From: Candidatus Melainabacteria bacterium 17Bon1m
GTDB taxonomy: Bacteria > Cyanobacteriota > Vampirovibrionia > Obscuribacterales > Obscuribacteraceae
Length of the DNA: 64,000 bases
Assembly (NCBI GenBank): GCA_032128875.1
Contig: JAVLKG010000004.1
Location: 352,001 to 416,000 of the forward strand
Reading direction: 5' to 3'
Positions within the stretch are counted from its first letter, which is position 1. Each line of letters starts with the position of its first letter. The translations under genes were made by a program, and so were the position numbers. This document shows, piece by piece, positions 4,068-41,160 of the stretch. Below the pieces are notes generated by a model, which saw nothing but the letters and a program-made list of their open reading frames with translations, had not been told where the DNA came from and did no database searches.

Positions 4068-4144
4068 ATGGAAACAGCGATGGGATGCCAAAATTGAACA
4101 TTTTTGAAGATGGTTTTGTGGCGCTTGGCTAAGTCAAAGTTAGG

Positions 4145-4726
4145 TCACTTTGTGTATTTCGCGACCAGTTCGCCAACGCTTGCTATACGTGCTTTCAGAA
4201 GTCCTTGCATTCTTTCCAGCGCTGAGTCCGTTAGTTGTTGATGGTTCGATATGACACCATCACTGACTACTATGAGCTTGTAGTCTCGCATGTAAGCGTC
4301 ATTTGCCGTGTACATCACACAAATGTCTGCTGCTATACCTGCCAGCACCAGTGTTTTTGCACCTAATTTCTTCAAAAGGATATTGAGTGGCGTACCGAAA
4401 AATCCAGAATGCATAGGTTTTAAAACAAAGAAATCTTGTTTGGTAGGTTTTAGCGCAATTGCAAGATCACGGCCATTTGAGCCCGTTTTAGTGCAAGCAT
4501 CTAGTTGTTCATTGAAGTTCGAGTGCCAGTTATTGAAATTGTCGTTGAGATAGATGACGGGTATTTCGGCCTGACGTGCCGCTCTTTTTAGACGCGCCAA
4601 ATTTTCAGCCAGCAGAGGCAAGCCTGCTAACAATTCTTCATTGTCCGGAAAGTCAAGTCTGTTGATGACGTCAATCAGAAGTAGTGCCGTATCCGACTGC
4701 GGCAGCTTACCTTGAGATGAAGTCAT
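4145..4726 (-). CDS. isochorismatase-family cysteine hydrolase
   Basis: ALLLIDVIN, K..HSGFFGTPL, AGIAADICV (Asp-Lys-Cys triad). Confidence 0.9.
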   Translation of the reverse strand: MTSSQGKLPQSDTALLLIDVINRLDFPDNEELLAGLPLLAENLARLKRAARQAEIPVIYLNDNFNNWHSNFNEQLDACTKTGSNGRDLAIALKPTKQDFFVLKPMHSGFFGTPLNILLKKLGAKTLVLAGIAADICVMYTANDAYMRDYKLIVVSDGVISNHQQLTDSALERMQGLLKARIASVGELVAKYTK

Positions 4727-4984: not shown

Positions 4985-5152
4985 TTAGGCGCTTTCTCTC
5001 AACTCGAATTCATCAGTATCCAGGATGGAGATTGTTCGCTTGCGGGCGTCGATTAGTTTGACGCCGTCCTTCCAATACTGCTCTGCAAACATCATCGCTA
5101 GTTCGAAGCGAGGAAACTCAAATACGTTTGCCTCCGAAATTACGCTCCACAT
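4985..5152 (-). CDS. 55-aa small protein, not in ORF track
   Basis: Manual translation MWSVISEANVFEFPRFELAMMFAEQYWKDGVKLIDARKRTISILDTDEFELRESA; GGAG RBS, upstream promoter, paralogue at 10512-10706. Confidence 0.75.
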   Translation of the reverse strand: MWSVISEANVFEFPRFELAMMFAEQYWKDGVKLIDARKRTISILDTDEFELRESA

Positions 5153-7997: not shown

Positions 7998-8220
7998 CTA
8001 TACCTCGTGATTTTGCCGTCAGCATTAAGTTTGCTTATTTCCCGCAGCTACTGGCTTTTATGGGTTTGCATCTCTTAACTAACTGAGGACATGCGCGGCG
8101 TCCTCGGTTTGAATTTGCTGGCGTCGTCCAAATTAGCTTGTCAGAAATAAGTTTCATTAGTCGCGCAATTACTGCAATTTCTTGGTGGTAAAAAAAAGGT
8201 CTTAGCTTTCAGTGATTATT

Positions 8221-36367: not shown

Positions 36368-36699
36368 TCCATAGTGACTGTGTCCAATTTGAGATTCCGT
36401 GTTTATGTATATTCCCGAGTTCGGAAAAAAGATGCAACTCTCAGCCTGTTAGAGTTTTCGGACTTTGAGCTGGTTGGTGTTCGAGCAGAAACCGATGCGG
36501 TGCGGGTGGAAAAGTTCAGCGCTTTAGAGTGGCGGAAAAGCGACCAAATGGGGAAACTACGAAGCATTTGCCGACGTATTGGCGCAAATTGTCACGGGAT
36601 TATAACTACCGTTTGCCTAACCTCGATTTACGCCAAGCGATTCCCCCCGATGGCGTCTCTCTGAAATTCAATAGCTTCTTCCATGTTGGAGGTTACCCC

Positions 36700-38673
36700 A
36701 TGGCTTGTGATGCATCCTCGAGTAATTTGGTGTCGAGTTTGGAAAAGTGGAACGCGGCAAAAACGGCCGGCAGCGGTGATACCACATCCATGGAAAAAGA
36801 GATCGCGCAACAACTCCAAAATGAATATTCGACGTTGTCTTCACAAGCCATGAACAGCGATCCAAATCGAATAAGCGACATGCGAGAGAAGATAAATGCG
36901 GAGTTGGCACAAAAAGAGGCGGCTTGTAATATGCCGCATATGGAACTTGTTGAAACGAATGGTGGATTGCGAGTTGTCACCGCTGGCGGCAAAGATGGTT
37001 TCAATGTCAAAATTGATGAAAATCAGGTTGAGCAAGCAACAGTTTCGTTATCATCTAAAACTTTTACAGATGGTGCTGTAGCAGGTGCTGTGAGTGCAGT
37101 TAGCTCCGCGGATAAGGCATCTACTGGTGACAAGGCAGCAAGTACTCAACCCTGTGACAAATCCGCAGCAGTGTTGGACGCAAGCCGGCCTCCGGTTGTT
37201 CACAAACCTGTAGCGAAGTATGTTCCTGGAGACAGACCAATCGCCGGAGGAGATAAGCTTTCACCGAGTGATATAGACGCGAAAATGGAACGCGATTATC
37301 ACAATAATATGGTCTACAAATTTAAAGACGGTTCTTCAGTTAAGTTCGATCAAGCTCAACCTCCAAGAGTTGCAGAACTGATGAACGCTCGTGGTGAGCG
37401 AATTTCGCTTACTTATCGAGGTGAATCAAAAGCACCAATTAGTTTTGTTATGACCGATAAAAACGGTGCGGTGATTGAGTCTGGTTTTAAAGGGACGCGT
37501 GATCGTGAATGGAATATCGACACTTCCCATTCCGGCTGGAAGGTTAAAGATGCTTTCCGGGGAGCGCGCATAACCGACATTGGTATCAGCGATGATTTGC
37601 AATTAGTTATGAAAGACAAGAATGGGAATTTTCTGGAGCACCGCAGAGATGGTGATGTTCTCAAAAGAGATTTTCGTGGACGCATAACAAGCGAAGTCAC
37701 CATAGTCGGTCGAACTACTGACTTCACCTACAGTGGCAAAGATAGCAATCCATCCTCCTATACGATTACTGATGGTGGTGGTGCGATTATTGAACATGGT
37801 GAGCGTAAGAATCACTCTTGGAACACTTTTAAGCCAAAGCAGGGGGTTACAACCCTGGATCCTGGCAGTCTGAATAATCCAGATAACTTGGTTCGTAATC
37901 CTGCGGATAAAGTTGCGTCCATACAAATGAATCATCGCACTGGAAATGCTGTCATGATGCATGCGAATGGGGACCGCACATGGCGGCCTGGTGATGACGA
38001 GAGGTTGTGGAGGAAGACCATCGGCGGTGCCGAAACGATTACGCATCCAAACGATAATGGAAAGCCAGAGATGCAACATTTTGTCAGTACCGATGGTGTG
38101 AAAACCAGATATGAGTATGACAAGAATGGTCAAGTCTTGAAAATGACACAGCACCATCCAAATGGTGAGGTAAATAAACTAAGTCGCAGAGATGTTTCGC
38201 AAGACTTCGTCGACGAGCATGGAAAGCGTCAAAAAATTGAAGCCTCGCACCTTGCTGATGGTTCTGTTCGCATAAATTATCTAGAGAGGAATTTGCAAGT
38301 CGTGCAGCGTCCAGATGGTAGCGAAGTCCATGAATTTATGGCTAAAGATGGGCGCAGGCGTGTGCACAGCACAGTTGATACGAAAGGCACTGCTACCGAA
38401 TTTGTATATAACACCACCACTGGTGAACCGATACGTTTAGAGATCACAGACGCTAAAGGAAATCACGATGTTTGGACAATCGAGTCGCCAATCAAGACTG
38501 GCATCGATAATCCGGTGTGGAAGAATCAGGATGGTACAAAGAGCTTCGAAGGCACAGTTTCGGTCGAAAAAGATGGTTCTGTGAAGTATACAGGTCGAGA
38601 TGGGCGCGTAACATTGAAAACTCTACGTGGTGTCACGCTTGATGTCACGCCCAGTCCAACTATCTTGCAGTAA
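36700..38673 (+). CDS. large hypothetical protein with YD/RHS-like beta-hairpin repeats
   Basis: GGAGG RBS; TRYEYDKNGQV, GRTTDFTY, GTATEFVY. Confidence 0.8.
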   Translation: MACDASSSNLVSSLEKWNAAKTAGSGDTTSMEKEIAQQLQNEYSTLSSQAMNSDPNRISDMREKINAELAQKEAACNMPHMELVETNGGLRVVTAGGKDGFNVKIDENQVEQATVSLSSKTFTDGAVAGAVSAVSSADKASTGDKAASTQPCDKSAAVLDASRPPVVHKPVAKYVPGDRPIAGGDKLSPSDIDAKMERDYHNNMVYKFKDGSSVKFDQAQPPRVAELMNARGERISLTYRGESKAPISFVMTDKNGAVIESGFKGTRDREWNIDTSHSGWKVKDAFRGARITDIGISDDLQLVMKDKNGNFLEHRRDGDVLKRDFRGRITSEVTIVGRTTDFTYSGKDSNPSSYTITDGGGAIIEHGERKNHSWNTFKPKQGVTTLDPGSLNNPDNLVRNPADKVASIQMNHRTGNAVMMHANGDRTWRPGDDERLWRKTIGGAETITHPNDNGKPEMQHFVSTDGVKTRYEYDKNGQVLKMTQHHPNGEVNKLSRRDVSQDFVDEHGKRQKIEASHLADGSVRINYLERNLQVVQRPDGSEVHEFMAKDGRRRVHSTVDTKGTATEFVYNTTTGEPIRLEITDAKGNHDVWTIESPIKTGIDNPVWKNQDGTKSFEGTVSVEKDGSVKYTGRDGRVTLKTLRGVTLDVTPSPTILQ

Positions 38674-38699
38674 CGCCATATCAAATGGTCGGACAATAA

Positions 38700-38849
38700 A
38701 AAGAGAAAGGGTGGATTGCGCTTTGGACAATCCACTCCTTTTGGTTCTCGTCGAAAAAGCAGCGGTGGCAAGAGACAGAGGTATGAAAAGTCCGAACGAG
38801 GGAACCACCGCTTGCGATATGCTATCGCCTCGTTCTTTCCTTTCTCTTT
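38700..38849. ncRNA. candidate structured RNA or element of unknown family
   Basis: 11-bp terminal helix, three internal arms, 8-bp loop-loop complementarity. Confidence 0.55.
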
Positions 38850-38862
38850 CCATATCAACGAA

Positions 38863-40245
38863 TTAGGAAACTTTTGCTTCGAAGTTTGGGAAAGTAATTC
38901 TCACCAGAGTTCCTTTGGTTTCGCTCGGATCAAGCAATTCCACTTTCGCCTTGTGCGAATTGGCTATTTCCTGAACAATAGCTAATCCCAGACCGGTGCC
39001 ATTTACCTTGGTGCCAAGTACGCGATAAAAACGTTCAAAGACCCTCTTTCGTTCTTGAACAGGAATACCAGGCCCGGTATCTTGAACTGTCACCACGGGC
39101 GGTGGACCAGCCTTTACGGTCACATTTACGATACCGCCGTCCGGTGTATAACTGACAGCGTTATTAACTAAATTACTAAGCATTTCGCGTAGTTCGGCCT
39201 TGTCGCCGAGCACTAAGCTGCGCGTCGATGAAGGATGGAAGAATAGTTCGATCTTCTTGTTTGCTGCCTGCCTGATGAGATCCGATGTAACCTCAGAGGA
39301 GAGATCATTGAGTTCGACTAAGTCGTGCGGTTGAGCGCGGCGTTCTGAAGCTCTTGCCAAAATCAGTAATCCGCCGACGAGTTCCGCAATTCTGTCGGTC
39401 CCAGCATCTATTTGATTCAGCACATCTGAAAAATTGCCATTCGCAATGCGTCGACCATATTCAATGTAAGCTCGAAGCCCAGCGACCGGGGTCCTCAGTT
39501 GATGTGCGGCGTTAGCAACAAAGCGCTTCTGCTCTTCCATGTGATTATCGATTCTGCCAAAAAGAGAGTTGATTGACTCAACAATAGGAACAATTTCTTT
39601 GGGAGTGTTTTCATTCTCAATCGGAGTGAGATCGGATTGAGATCTTTGCTGAATTTCTTTACTCAGCTCTATTAGGGGTCTCAGCCCATCTTTTACACCG
39701 TAGCTTACTGCCGCCACGCTTAGTAAGCCTAGGATTATTTGCGGAACAACAATGCTAAGGAAGATTTTGTGAATTAACTCATTCCTTGCGTTTAGAGTGC
39801 GAGCAACTTGAACAACAACAAGTTTTTTAGGATCTTGCCTCAAAGGCATTCTAATTCTCGCAATTCTTACATCGTGTCCATTCACGACAGAATTTCTGAA
39901 TGCAGGTATGTCGGTGTTTACTTCCTTGATAGGCATTGGAAGAATTGCGTCTCCCGCCAATCTGACCTTTTCCAAGCTTAGTACTTGATAGAAGAAATCG
40001 TCTCTGTCTTTGTGGCGTAATACTGCTTGCACCGCGTCTGGTAAGTCAGCGACTATGCCCTTCCGGTCTTCTGTCAATCGAGCGGCGACTGCGTGCGCTG
40101 CGTTTAATAGCTCTTTGTCGTATGAATCATTGGCAAACCATGCTGCCAAATTGTAAGCAACAAATCCTGTCAGAACGAACATGACGCAAAGCGGTACCAA
40201 TAGTACCGTTAGAAGTTTGCGGGTAATTGAATTTTTGATGTTCAA
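38863..40245 (-). CDS. sensor histidine kinase (TctE/QseC-like)
   Basis: AAHQLRTP, NAVSYT, DTGPG, GTGLGL. Confidence 0.95.
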   Translation of the reverse strand: MNIKNSITRKLLTVLLVPLCVMFVLTGFVAYNLAAWFANDSYDKELLNAAHAVAARLTEDRKGIVADLPDAVQAVLRHKDRDDFFYQVLSLEKVRLAGDAILPMPIKEVNTDIPAFRNSVVNGHDVRIARIRMPLRQDPKKLVVVQVARTLNARNELIHKIFLSIVVPQIILGLLSVAAVSYGVKDGLRPLIELSKEIQQRSQSDLTPIENENTPKEIVPIVESINSLFGRIDNHMEEQKRFVANAAHQLRTPVAGLRAYIEYGRRIANGNFSDVLNQIDAGTDRIAELVGGLLILARASERRAQPHDLVELNDLSSEVTSDLIRQAANKKIELFFHPSSTRSLVLGDKAELREMLSNLVNNAVSYTPDGGIVNVTVKAGPPPVVTVQDTGPGIPVQERKRVFERFYRVLGTKVNGTGLGLAIVQEIANSHKAKVELLDPSETKGTLVRITFPNFEAKVS

Positions 40246-40898
40246 GTGACTGTATATCCAAGATTTCGAATTGTCTTGATCGAGATACCTGATTTCTTCA
40301 ATTTCTTTCTAAGTCGGTGCACTGCAATATCGAGCGCATTGTTTGTAATCTCTTTATCCCAACTGCTCAGTTGTTCCATCAATTGTTCTTTGTGAATAAG
40401 TAAATTGCGCTGACGAACAAGAACTTCAAGTACTGCCAATTCTCGTTTGGTTAGAGTTACTAATTCATCATTTATATGCGCGGTTCGTTTTACCGTATTG
40501 AAGTGCAGGTTCTTGATCGTGACAATTTCCTGATTGCCCCAGCCTAAGCGAATCAGCGCTCGAACTCTGGCTTCTAGTTCGTTCATGTCAAAAGGTTTTG
40601 TAAGGTAGTCGTTTGCGCCAGCATCTAATCCGAGCACTCGGTCTTTTACTTGATCACGTGCACTCAGAATAAGTACAGGAACATTATTCTTTTTGCCTCT
40701 CATCTTCTTAAGCACGTCGATACCGTCGATGCCTGGCAAGCAGAGATCTAGAACCACGAGATCGTAATGGGTTGTTGAAAGTGAAATATCTGCGGCAATT
40801 CCATCTTCGGCATGATCGACCATATAGCCGCTGTCTTTGAGAACAAGCGACAGACCGTTAGCCAGGAAGTTATCGTCTTCTACCAGCAAGATTCGCAT
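40242..40898 (-). CDS. OmpR family response regulator (TctD/QseB-like)
   Basis: MRILLVEDD, VLDLCLPG, TIRNLGY. Confidence 0.95.
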   Translation of the reverse strand: MRILLVEDDNFLANGLSLVLKDSGYMVDHAEDGIAADISLSTTHYDLVVLDLCLPGIDGIDVLKKMRGKKNNVPVLILSARDQVKDRVLGLDAGANDYLTKPFDMNELEARVRALIRLGWGNQEIVTIKNLHFNTVKRTAHINDELVTLTKRELAVLEVLVRQRNLLIHKEQLMEQLSSWDKEITNNALDIAVHRLRKKLKKSGISIKTIRNLGYTVT

Positions 40899-41160
40899 GT
40901 GATTATGCCTCCATATCCTATTTTACGTTCTTTTTGTCCAAATAGAATTTTGGAAAGACATGGGAAAGATACAGCCAGTCCAGATCTTGCGCCCAAGAAA
41001 TTTCATCTGGAAAGCATAAAAATTGAGCAGTTAAGCCGATTTTTGGCTCATTTTGAAACGTTTACGAAAATTTCGGACTATAGACTAAAAATAGGTTTGT
41101 CCGCAATGCAAACGCGCCTACTGTGCGCGTTTTACCGATATTGCGGGATGCGAGGTCTAA

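Follow-up and report, generated by a model that had tools for sequence, protein, structure and literature searches.

What occupies the 189-nucleotide (nt) spacer between the stop codons of two convergent genes, one coding for a 714-amino-acid (714-aa) protein and the other for a 460-aa sensor histidine kinase, in a 64,000-nt stretch of DNA (the window; contig JAVLKG010000004.1, positions 352,001 to 416,000 of the forward strand) from Candidatus Melainabacteria bacterium 17Bon1m? The candidate element fills this spacer entirely, and an earlier note, made from the sequence alone, had described it as a multi-stem RNA-like element of about 150 nt with a kissing-loop pseudoknot, possibly a free noncoding RNA (ncRNA), a ribozyme, a 3′ stability element, or a small mobile element. 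We find that this plus-strand element is not one unit but a composite, the conserved parts of which are sensible only on the minus strand. In the reading that we favor, and to which we give an even chance, the spacer combines a bidirectional terminator with an orphan minus-strand paralogue of a promoter-leader module from a PmrA/TctD-like two-component regulon. The orphan is a modest regulatory relic or a small-RNA candidate, and is neither a new ribozyme nor a mobile element. Positions below are those of the window; G000 denotes the 7.55-Mb genome that holds it, and G011 its sister species.

Results and Discussion

The Minus-Strand Module and Its Homologues

Read on the minus strand, and as delimited by an alignment of eight homologues, the module opens with the direct repeat GAAAGA-N5-GAAAGA (38834–38850), a putative box for an OmpR-family regulator, followed 9 nt later by the −10-like hexamer TAGCAT (38819–38824), in which A2 and T6 are invariant in all eight sequences and the spacing is fixed. 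Next comes a stem, P1, with its 5′ arm at 38805–38812 (AGCGGTGG on the minus strand) and its 3′ arm at 38761–38768 (CCACCGCT on the minus strand, invariant in 8 of 8 aligned homologues). The two arms enclose a pyrimidine-rich leader loop (38769–38804) that is variable in length and sequence and carries 10 extra nt in G011 (a 1-nt and a 9-nt insertion), and the leader hairpin is immediately followed by a T5 run (38754–38758; GCTTTTT on the minus strand). The invariant A at 38812, the first base of P1, is the probable transcription start, judging from its place 7 nt after the −10.

The order of elements is the same throughout the alignment, namely GAAAGA, N5, GAAAG(A), a box-to-stem spacer of constant length (in all eight sequences) that holds the −10, and, six bases on, an A followed by GCGG(T/C)GG. 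Between 36 and 50 variable bases then separate this arm from CCACCGCT, after which comes a mostly T-rich tail. The invariant columns are GAAAGA, the GAAAG of the second hexamer, the A and T of the −10, the A at the start of the stem, GCGG-GG, and CCACCGCT. Both box hexamers are unchanged in 7 of the 8 homologues (the copy on contig C22 of G000 has one mismatch), while N5 is free, and the −10 hexamers read TAGCAT, TATCCT, TATTCT, TATGCT or AATAAT. The tail after P1 is T-rich in most members, with 5–6 T in the first 8 bases of six canonical leaders (defined below), the clear exception being the orphan G009:C83b (G009b), whose tail ACTCATCA has 2 T. Paired changes around the −10 gave a covariation score of 0.266 vs 0.178 (4 of 500 shuffles), a value to be read against the small set of eight related sequences and the T-A/A-T symmetry inherent in TAnnnT.

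The starting point for the first covariance model was genome G009, in which AGCGGTGGC...GCCGCCGCT occurs immediately past the stop codon of a kinase gene, the kinase being an orthologue of a paralogous kinase on contig C22 of G000 (79.7% identity, vs 75.3% to the kinase of the window). With this core model, copies were recovered at G011:C5 (29.6 bits, E 1.5e-3 per genome) and G008:C125 (18.6 bits), both of which sit between a minus-strand gene whose product begins MPFP and a plus-strand small membrane-protein gene, and adjoin a paralogous kinase only 47% identical to that of the window. The similarity of these copies extends beyond the stem and into the T-rich stretch that had been reported as the right arm of a closing helix. 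Further matches to this model in three other genera (G062, G067 and G084) lie inside long open reading frames (ORFs) resembling polyketide synthase (PKS) and Ser/Thr kinase genes, and were set aside as chance. A pattern search added G000:C22, G009:C83a and G003:C224; two pattern matches in genus g32 were dropped, having no −10. A second model, built on the eight-sequence alignment, found nine loci at 88–122 bits in 6 of 13 genomes from a single Obscuribacteraceae genus; among 91 genomes from 36 further genera in the family, no locus reached E ≤ 0.05.

The nine loci fall into two kinds. At the six canonical loci (G011:C5, G008:C125, G009:C83a, G007:C54, G003:C224 and G000:C22), the hairpin is followed, after ~25–90 nt, by the ATGCCG... 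start of a 480–598-aa "MPFP" protein, which had no match in Pfam or NCBIfam. The three orphan loci (the window, G011:C1 and G009:C83b, in 3 of the 13 genomes of the genus) lie directly past the stop codon of a kinase gene and are followed solely by a terminator hairpin and a convergent gene, whose 3′ end faces them. In all three orphans, the 12 box bases are fully retained, as are the A and T of the −10 and 7–8 of the 8 stem pairs, the remaining spacer being no longer alignable; they lie after kinases only 73–80% identical in protein sequence, and common derived states separate them from the canonical copies. At the level of sequence, the data establish the homology of the copies, the fixed geometry of box, −10 and stem, the recurrence of the box at paralogous kinase loci (see below), and the retention of box and stem in the three orphans.

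Stem P1 and the Canonical Leader Hairpin

In the eight sequences, 98.4% of the 64 cells of P1 (AGCGGTGG/CCACCGCT) are paired. In the model-fitted alignment of 11 rows, P1 is 98.6% paired, and the canonical inner helix TTATGGA/TCCATAA 81.8%. The variation in the canonical stem is one-sided and takes the form of U-G or G-U pairs in a minus-strand RNA (e.g., AGTGGTGG, TCCATAG in G007:C54), corresponding to C-A on the plus strand. Because the canonical variants thus pair on the minus strand and would be C-A mismatches on the plus strand, a helix in a minus-strand RNA is favored. The canonical hairpin as a whole consists of an 8–9-base-pair (8–9-bp) outer stem, a 6-nt UCCUCC bulge, a 6–7-bp inner stem, and a pyrimidine-rich loop of 22–27 nt, with folding free energies of −16 to −20 kcal mol–1. 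The copy in the window retains the outer stem and a C/U-rich loop, and not the inner stem. We note as a separate observation that the bulge and loop of the canonical leader resemble anti-Shine-Dalgarno sequences.

Folding of the Spacer and the Proposed Plus-Strand RNA

Every string on which the earlier description was built is present in the window. The arms of the proposed closing helix are AAAGAGAAAGG (38700–38710) and CCTTTCTCTTT (38839–38849), those of the adjacent hairpin, GTGGATTG and CAATCCAC, span 38711–38735, the long-range pair consists of AGCGGTGG (38761–38768) and CCACCGCT (38805–38812) as read on the plus strand, and the direct repeat CCATATCAA occurs at 38676–38684 and 38850–38858. 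The spacer also folds better than its own shuffles, with a minimum free energy (MFE) of −55.6 kcal mol–1 on the plus strand (z = −2.08, 5 of 200 shuffles as good) and −61.0 kcal mol–1 on the minus strand (z = −3.32, 0 of 200 as good). An inverted repeat of at least 11 arose in 8 of 2000 dinucleotide shuffles, and an equal number of 8-mer inverted seeds in 1 of 2000. The self-complementarity on which the note had remarked is therefore real when measured against shuffled versions of the same spacer, but the fold is ordinary among convergent spacers of the same genome. Crude greedy ORF calls (≥150 aa) yielded 132 convergent spacers of 120–260 nt, and in the 73 of these used for the folding comparison (30 shuffles each), the mean z was −2.48 on the plus and −2.82 on the minus strand, which places the spacer of interest at the 52nd and 32nd percentiles, respectively. 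Perfect inverted repeats of at least 11 are found in 29 of the 132 convergent spacers vs 4 of 345 divergent ones. Only one of the 132, the present one, has an inverted repeat spanning at least 60% of its length, where ~0.5 would be expected at ~0.4% per spacer.

The closing helix does have complementary arms, but in G011 these have acquired 1 mismatch and 2 G-U pairs with no compensation. Its left arm is the minus-strand T-tail of the hairpin at 38711–38735, its right arm is the box, and both arms are low-complexity purine/pyrimidine runs; in G011, both changes in the right arm fall within the free N5 of the box and leave the hexamers intact. The kissing pair likewise reflects genuine complementarity, but in the conserved fold it is the ordinary nested stem P1, which excludes the GAACGAG/CTCGTTC arm. 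That arm and its GCGATA/TATCGC sub-hairpin are present in the window, but the helices are only 62.5% paired across the homologues (104 cells, 8 sequences). They overlap the −10 hexamer and the spacers flanking it, touching the box edge and the stem loop, with the GCGATA hairpin straddling the −10, and in G011 the GAACGAG arm is disrupted by the 9-nt insertion. With the nested arms poorly kept, and with no pair of the supposed kissing helix changed on both sides in eight sequences, the proposed pseudoknot is not supported.

An explanation in which the spacer encodes a plus-strand multi-stem ncRNA, ribozyme or 3′ stability element of ~150 nt, closed by AAAGAGAAAGG/CCTTTCTCTTT and with AGCGGTGG and CCACCGCT kissing, is for these reasons very improbable in our view. 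It draws on the facts that every helix exists, that the plus-strand MFE structure uses the closing helix, that three helix changes in G011 give G-U pairs on the plus strand, and that AGCGGTGG/CCGCCGCT in G009b has a G-U pair on that strand. Against this stand the uncompensated closing helix and the broken GAACGAG arm of G011, pairing of 62.5% in the GAACGAG and GCGATA helices vs 98.4% for the plain stem, a z-score that is ordinary for the genome, and the occurrence of the entire unit in 2 genomes only. Moreover, each canonical copy precedes a gene on the minus strand, and the plus strand at these loci is thus antisense promoter DNA. Searches against Rfam gave no match in the 64-kb window at the gathering threshold, and in a permissive search the best sub-threshold match was CC3552 (16.4 bits vs a threshold of 50, E 1.9); five canonical loci gave no match at E ≤ 1. 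Having neither an Rfam match nor covariation, the suggested ribozyme finds no support. The spacer was also considered as coding sequence, which we rejected because the indels between G000 and G011 (1, 1 and 9 nt) break the frame.

Distribution of the Spacer and the Flanking Direct Repeat

The spacer was compared by BLAST with G000, with 41 relatives, and with a set of 104 genomes of the family. In G000 it occurs once (other matches in this genome have E ≥ 0.22), and in the family set the whole unit is found only in G000 and, at the syntenic site, in G011, where the identity is 86% in the spacer and 91% over 701 nt with the flanks. The stem of hairpin 38711–38735 and both AGCGGTGG/CCACCGCT strings are identical in G011. 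Four short matches were obtained elsewhere in the family (G088, G105, G077 and G086; 20–30 nt, E 8.6e-5 to 0.0097). At the corresponding site in G007, a small membrane-protein gene extends to the kinase stop codon, and in G008 a different upstream gene and tandem repeats lie beside the kinase. The tandem repeats on G008:C223 (locus L034, 820–1010) have units such as GAACCAAAA/GTACCAAA together with three copies of an 18-nt GC-rich unit, and the kinase reading frame apparently continues into them. A metagenome scan with the kinase returned eight loci, of which three were informative (two G007-like and one G008-like), none with the element, in a collection that may lack records of G000 itself. 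In the DNA runs X14 and X16, from near-identical strains, none of the listed differences falls within 38398–39609, which at a divergence of ~0.8% is uninformative.

These data bear on the suggestion that the element is a non-autonomous mobile element, akin to a miniature inverted-repeat transposable element (MITE), with CCATATCAA as its target-site duplication. The region is indeed enclosed by a perfect 9-nt direct repeat and has an 11-bp inverted repeat close to its ends, but direct repeats of at least 9 nt occurred in 109 of 2000 shuffles, which is chance level, and the repeat is degenerate in G011, where the left copy (38676–38684 in the window) reads CCGTTTCCA, with 3 of its 9 positions changed, and the right copy has a single change in 9. 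We judge the left copy to be a chance occurrence. The right copy (38850–38858; consensus TTTGGAAAGA) shares its first base with the last base of the box, and bases 1–3 complement the TGG at the opening of the box context, such that it overlaps the conserved TGG-GAAAGA edge. The left repeat is furthermore 15 nt away from the inverted repeat rather than abutting it, the only copy among the 103 other family genomes is the syntenic one in G011, and in related loci this place is occupied by a small gene or by other sequence instead of being empty, with no site bearing a single CCATATCAA in G007, G008 or G009. Insertion of a mobile element is, in our estimation, the least probable of the explanations considered.

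The Terminator-Like Hairpin

The hairpin at 38711–38735, identified from the sequence and by a terminator scan, has a stem of 8–9 bp and the appearance of a bidirectional intrinsic terminator. It is followed by TCCTTTTGG on the plus strand and by a T-rich tail on the minus strand (CCTTTCTCTTTTTATTG, 38694–38710), and it is this tail that contains the left arm of the supposed closing helix. The scan itself reported the minus-strand hairpin 38735–38711, with 9 pairs and the tail CCTTTCTCTT. In G011 the stem carries no change and the loop two. The GC-containing stem-loop followed by a U run that characterizes Rho-independent terminators is seen both in this hairpin and, on the minus strand, in P1 with its GCTTTTT, and both may be predicted to terminate transcription. 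The T-rich tails on both strands liken the spacer to the bidirectional Rho-independent terminators found between convergent genes, as does the strong folding that is typical of this genome's convergent spacers; the difference is that hairpin 38711–38735 covers only the left third of the element as reported.

The GAAAGA-N5-GAAAGA Box and Its Putative Regulon

The 7.55-Mb genome contains 13 exact boxes, where ~0.9 would be expected assuming uniform composition. On a crude ORF map, five of these copies fall between genes, and one more precedes the actual start of a signal-peptide protein. When the box (at most one mismatch) was required to be followed 8–10 nt downstream by TAnnnT, 10 hits remained in the genome, 7 of them intergenic. 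These composite hits precede genes for an AcrB-family pump (contig C20) and the MPFP protein (C22), a secreted low-complexity protein (C22, the box lying 42 nt past the stop codon of a paralogous kinase), and a KaiB-like/small-membrane-protein operon (C22), and one (G000:C4:481548-481564, plus strand; one mismatch, TAATTT 8 nt downstream) adjoins the regulator of a paralogous kinase with 41% identity. At loci chosen by kinase homology alone, 15 perfect boxes were found in 10 of 11 loci (46.7 kb, ~0.006 expected); with two further loci fetched after box hits, the total is 19 perfect and 2 one-mismatch boxes, 14 of these 21 having TAnnnT 8–9 nt past the box and one having AATAAT. Three sequence features expected of an OmpR/PhoB class II box are seen here, namely a direct repeat of hexamers with an 11-bp period, a fixed short distance to the −10, and recurrence near two-component genes. 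Since the hexamer-N5-hexamer arrangement just upstream of a −10 matches PhoP box architecture I, we infer that the box is the putative binding site of this regulator family.

Several observations concern the surroundings of the other boxes. A second two-component cluster in the same genome (locus L082, G000:C22:20500-31500) has boxes at 4274–4290 (minus), 5105–5121 (plus) and 8124–8140 (minus), and contains two kinases (73% and 46% identical to that of the window), one regulator, and genes for the 598-aa MPFP protein, a GGDEF protein, a KaiB-like protein, a small membrane protein, and a signal-peptide low-complexity protein. Within this cluster, a one-mismatch box (L082 5980–5996, minus) lies right after the stop codon of the 73% identical kinase and is followed by ATCGCAAG, an 8-mer that the window element likewise has in the interval from its −10 to its stem; it may be a truncated relic of an orphan module, or chance. 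At locus L083 (G000:C20:46500-51101, at a contig end), a box at 4131–4147 (minus) with TAAGAT lies ~290 nt upstream of the gene for a 1045-aa pump of the AcrB/AcrD/AcrF family. In G005 and G012, a similar box is found ~1.1 kb from the stop codon of the kinase orthologue; it lies upstream of the 3′ end of a gene resembling those for efflux pumps, and this gene and the kinase gene converge.

A second perfect box in the window (40953–40969, plus strand) lies between the regulator gene and the divergent GT20 (trehalose-phosphate-synthase-like) gene, and is conserved at the orthologous loci of G011, G007 and G008, and thus in four species in all. It may serve autoregulation in reverse orientation. 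The presence of two perfect boxes flanking the regulator-kinase operon within 2.2 kb raises the alternative that the box past the kinase acts at the DNA level only, as an operator (a decoy, a roadblock, or a looping partner of 40953–40969) with no RNA of its own, and the conservation in four species of an upstream box that has no −10 at the usual offset is in keeping with this. A pure operator would, however, have no need of the −10-like hexamer and start-proximal stem that the orphan keeps at the canonical spacing, and we consider this alternative improbable.

Proposed Mechanism and Its Weighing against an Inert Relic

In the mechanism that we propose for the bidirectional terminator and orphan promoter-leader module, regulator binding, promoter activity, the start site, termination, and any function of a short RNA are all deduced from the arrangement of the signals described above. 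Hairpin 38711–38735 would end transcription of the plus-strand 714-aa gene, as well as read-through from the kinase operon. The phosphorylated regulator would bind the box, which occupies the place of a −35 element in the geometry of a class II activator, and recruit RNA polymerase. Minus-strand transcription would then start at ~38812, with the nascent RNA folding immediately into P1, and the transcript would be ~60 nt long if it stopped at the T5 run, or ~120 nt if it stopped at hairpin 38711–38735, with P1 and its T run potentially also stopping read-through from the kinase operon. At the canonical loci, the hairpin would form the 5′ end of the MPFP mRNA, whereas at the window, where the downstream gene is gone, only a short RNA would be made.

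Taken further, this mechanism would make the orphan a live small-RNA gene that arose from a duplicated mRNA promoter-leader, is activated by the regulator, and acts through its pyrimidine-rich loop on the Shine-Dalgarno regions of the regulon, with the canonical hairpin representing a new cis-regulatory leader motif of the Obscuribacteraceae outside Rfam. We regard this extension as possible but unlikely. Of the properties of a small-RNA gene, promoter-like and terminator-like signals are seen at the window; orphan copies occur in 3 of the genus's 13 genomes, and none accompanies the kinase orthologues of G007 and G008. The free ncRNA of the earlier note is the sole one of its options to survive, recast as an RNA of the opposite strand, ~60–120 nt long, that derives from a duplicated promoter and leader hairpin.

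Several findings weigh against the favored reading. P1 has no pairs with changes on both sides among the eight sequences, and in the orphan G009b one position is a C-A mismatch on the minus strand. The nearest kinase orthologues outside the sister species (G007, 92% aa identity; G008, 90%) have no such element beside them, and because their loci do without it, it is dispensable. The pattern itself is not enriched, with 10 matches vs 16 for the reversed control in 104 genomes, such that membership in the module rests on alignment and context. The window orphan lacks both the canonical inner helix and the UCCUCC bulge and keeps 38 of the 53 canonical-invariant columns, and in a non-circular test of constraint between G000 and G011, 4 differences fell in the 37 columns invariant in the other six sequences vs 16 in 82 (p = 0.18, not significant). 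The box at 40953–40969 has no TAnnnT at the usual offset. Finally, the runs X2 and X3, labeled as RNA-Seq, provide no usable transcript support for the module: the region (window 36400–41000) sits in contigs of 23 and 19 kb, the longest contigs being 125–148 kb, which means that these runs contain genomic DNA and therefore cannot show expression.

A number of these same points suit an explanation with the same origin but an inert outcome, in which the module is the decaying relic of a lost regulon gene and the spacer does nothing other than terminate both convergent units through hairpin 38711–38735 and P1 with its T5 run. This we see as a tentative but serious possibility. It accommodates the lack of a downstream gene on the minus strand, the loss of the inner helix and bulge, the missing element at the 92% and 90% kinase orthologues, the one-mismatch box without a stem just past the paralogous kinase on G000:C22, the nonsignificant constraint test, and folding that is typical of convergent spacers. 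Neutral decay, however, is hard to reconcile with three orphans that have kept 12 of 12 box bases, the A/T of the −10 and 7–8 of 8 stem pairs in spacers that are otherwise unalignable, and a terminator role accounts for the stem but not for the box and −10.

Comparison with Known Systems

The PmrA box is similar to the PhoP box. In architecture I, at class II promoters, the latter reads (T/G)GTTTA-N5-(T/G)GTTTA and lies ~12 nt upstream of the −10 (PMC3335776). The promoters described here resemble PhoP-type class II promoters in having a hexamer-N5-hexamer just upstream of the −10, and differ in the hexamer itself (GAAAGA) and in a distance to the −10 of 8–9 nt vs ~12 (PMC3335776). They further differ in that the box of the window has no gene to drive, and in that the host, known only from metagenome bins, is a non-photosynthetic relative of cyanobacteria. 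The likeness to OmpR/PhoB-type promoters extends to the occurrence of the box before several genes near cognate two-component genes, with the regulator being nearest to TctD, PmrA, RppA and QseB. A full-text literature search for GAAAGA together with a response regulator and a direct repeat gave no match, and the titles and opening lines of abstracts on Obscuribacter two-component promoters contained nothing relevant.

Small RNAs of the DapZ/MicL type are made from a dedicated promoter at a gene's 3′ end and share the terminator of that gene, and OmrA/B and MgrR are examples of regulator-activated small RNAs. The orphan resembles both groups in having a box promoter just past a coding region and a short predicted transcript that ends in a stem and a U run, as well as a pyrimidine-rich, unpaired loop that could pair with Shine-Dalgarno regions. 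It differs from them in that the predicted RNA would begin within a terminator-like hairpin of its own, and in that the sequence comes from a duplicated mRNA leader and is not found in close relatives. For the canonical copies, the ompA leader offers another comparison, since its 5′-terminal stem-loop protects the mRNA from decay that depends on the 5′ end. The likely canonical start is similarly the first base of an 8-bp GC-rich stem, with no single-stranded 5′ tail; the difference is the T-rich run after the hairpin, by virtue of which it could equally be an attenuator.

Neighboring Genes

The convergent upstream gene (36529–38673, plus strand; 714 aa), called from the ORF list, has its stop codon at 38673. 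Its product matched only RHS_repeat in Pfam (E 2.2e-4, borderline at the cutoff) and nothing in NCBIfam. On the other side, the 460-aa sensor histidine kinase (38863–40245, minus strand) has 2CSK_N, HisKA and HATPase_c domains and is PmrB/QseC-like, and the OmpR-family response regulator (40242–40898, minus strand), closest to TctD, PmrA, RppA and QseB, precedes it in one operon; the NCBIfam scores of both proteins are all below the equivalog cutoffs. Beyond the module, the ORF list contains no downstream gene on the minus strand.

Conclusions

The components of this spacer are of known kinds, namely a response-regulator box promoter, a 5′ leader hairpin, and a bidirectional terminator. What is new is the particular box, the regulon deduced from it, and a leader hairpin that is restricted to one genus and has no match in Rfam; because of this restriction, the practical value of the motif is modest. 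The locus illustrates how a promoter-leader copy remaining after gene loss can mimic a designed multi-stem RNA when read on the wrong strand. For the Obscuribacteraceae, a lineage known only from metagenome bins, it provides a first sequence-level guess at the regulator box and small regulon of a two-component family, which would comprise an AcrB-type pump, a secreted low-complexity protein, a KaiB-like/small membrane protein operon, and the MPFP protein. Were the orphan transcribed, it would exemplify how duplication of a leader can give rise to a small RNA.

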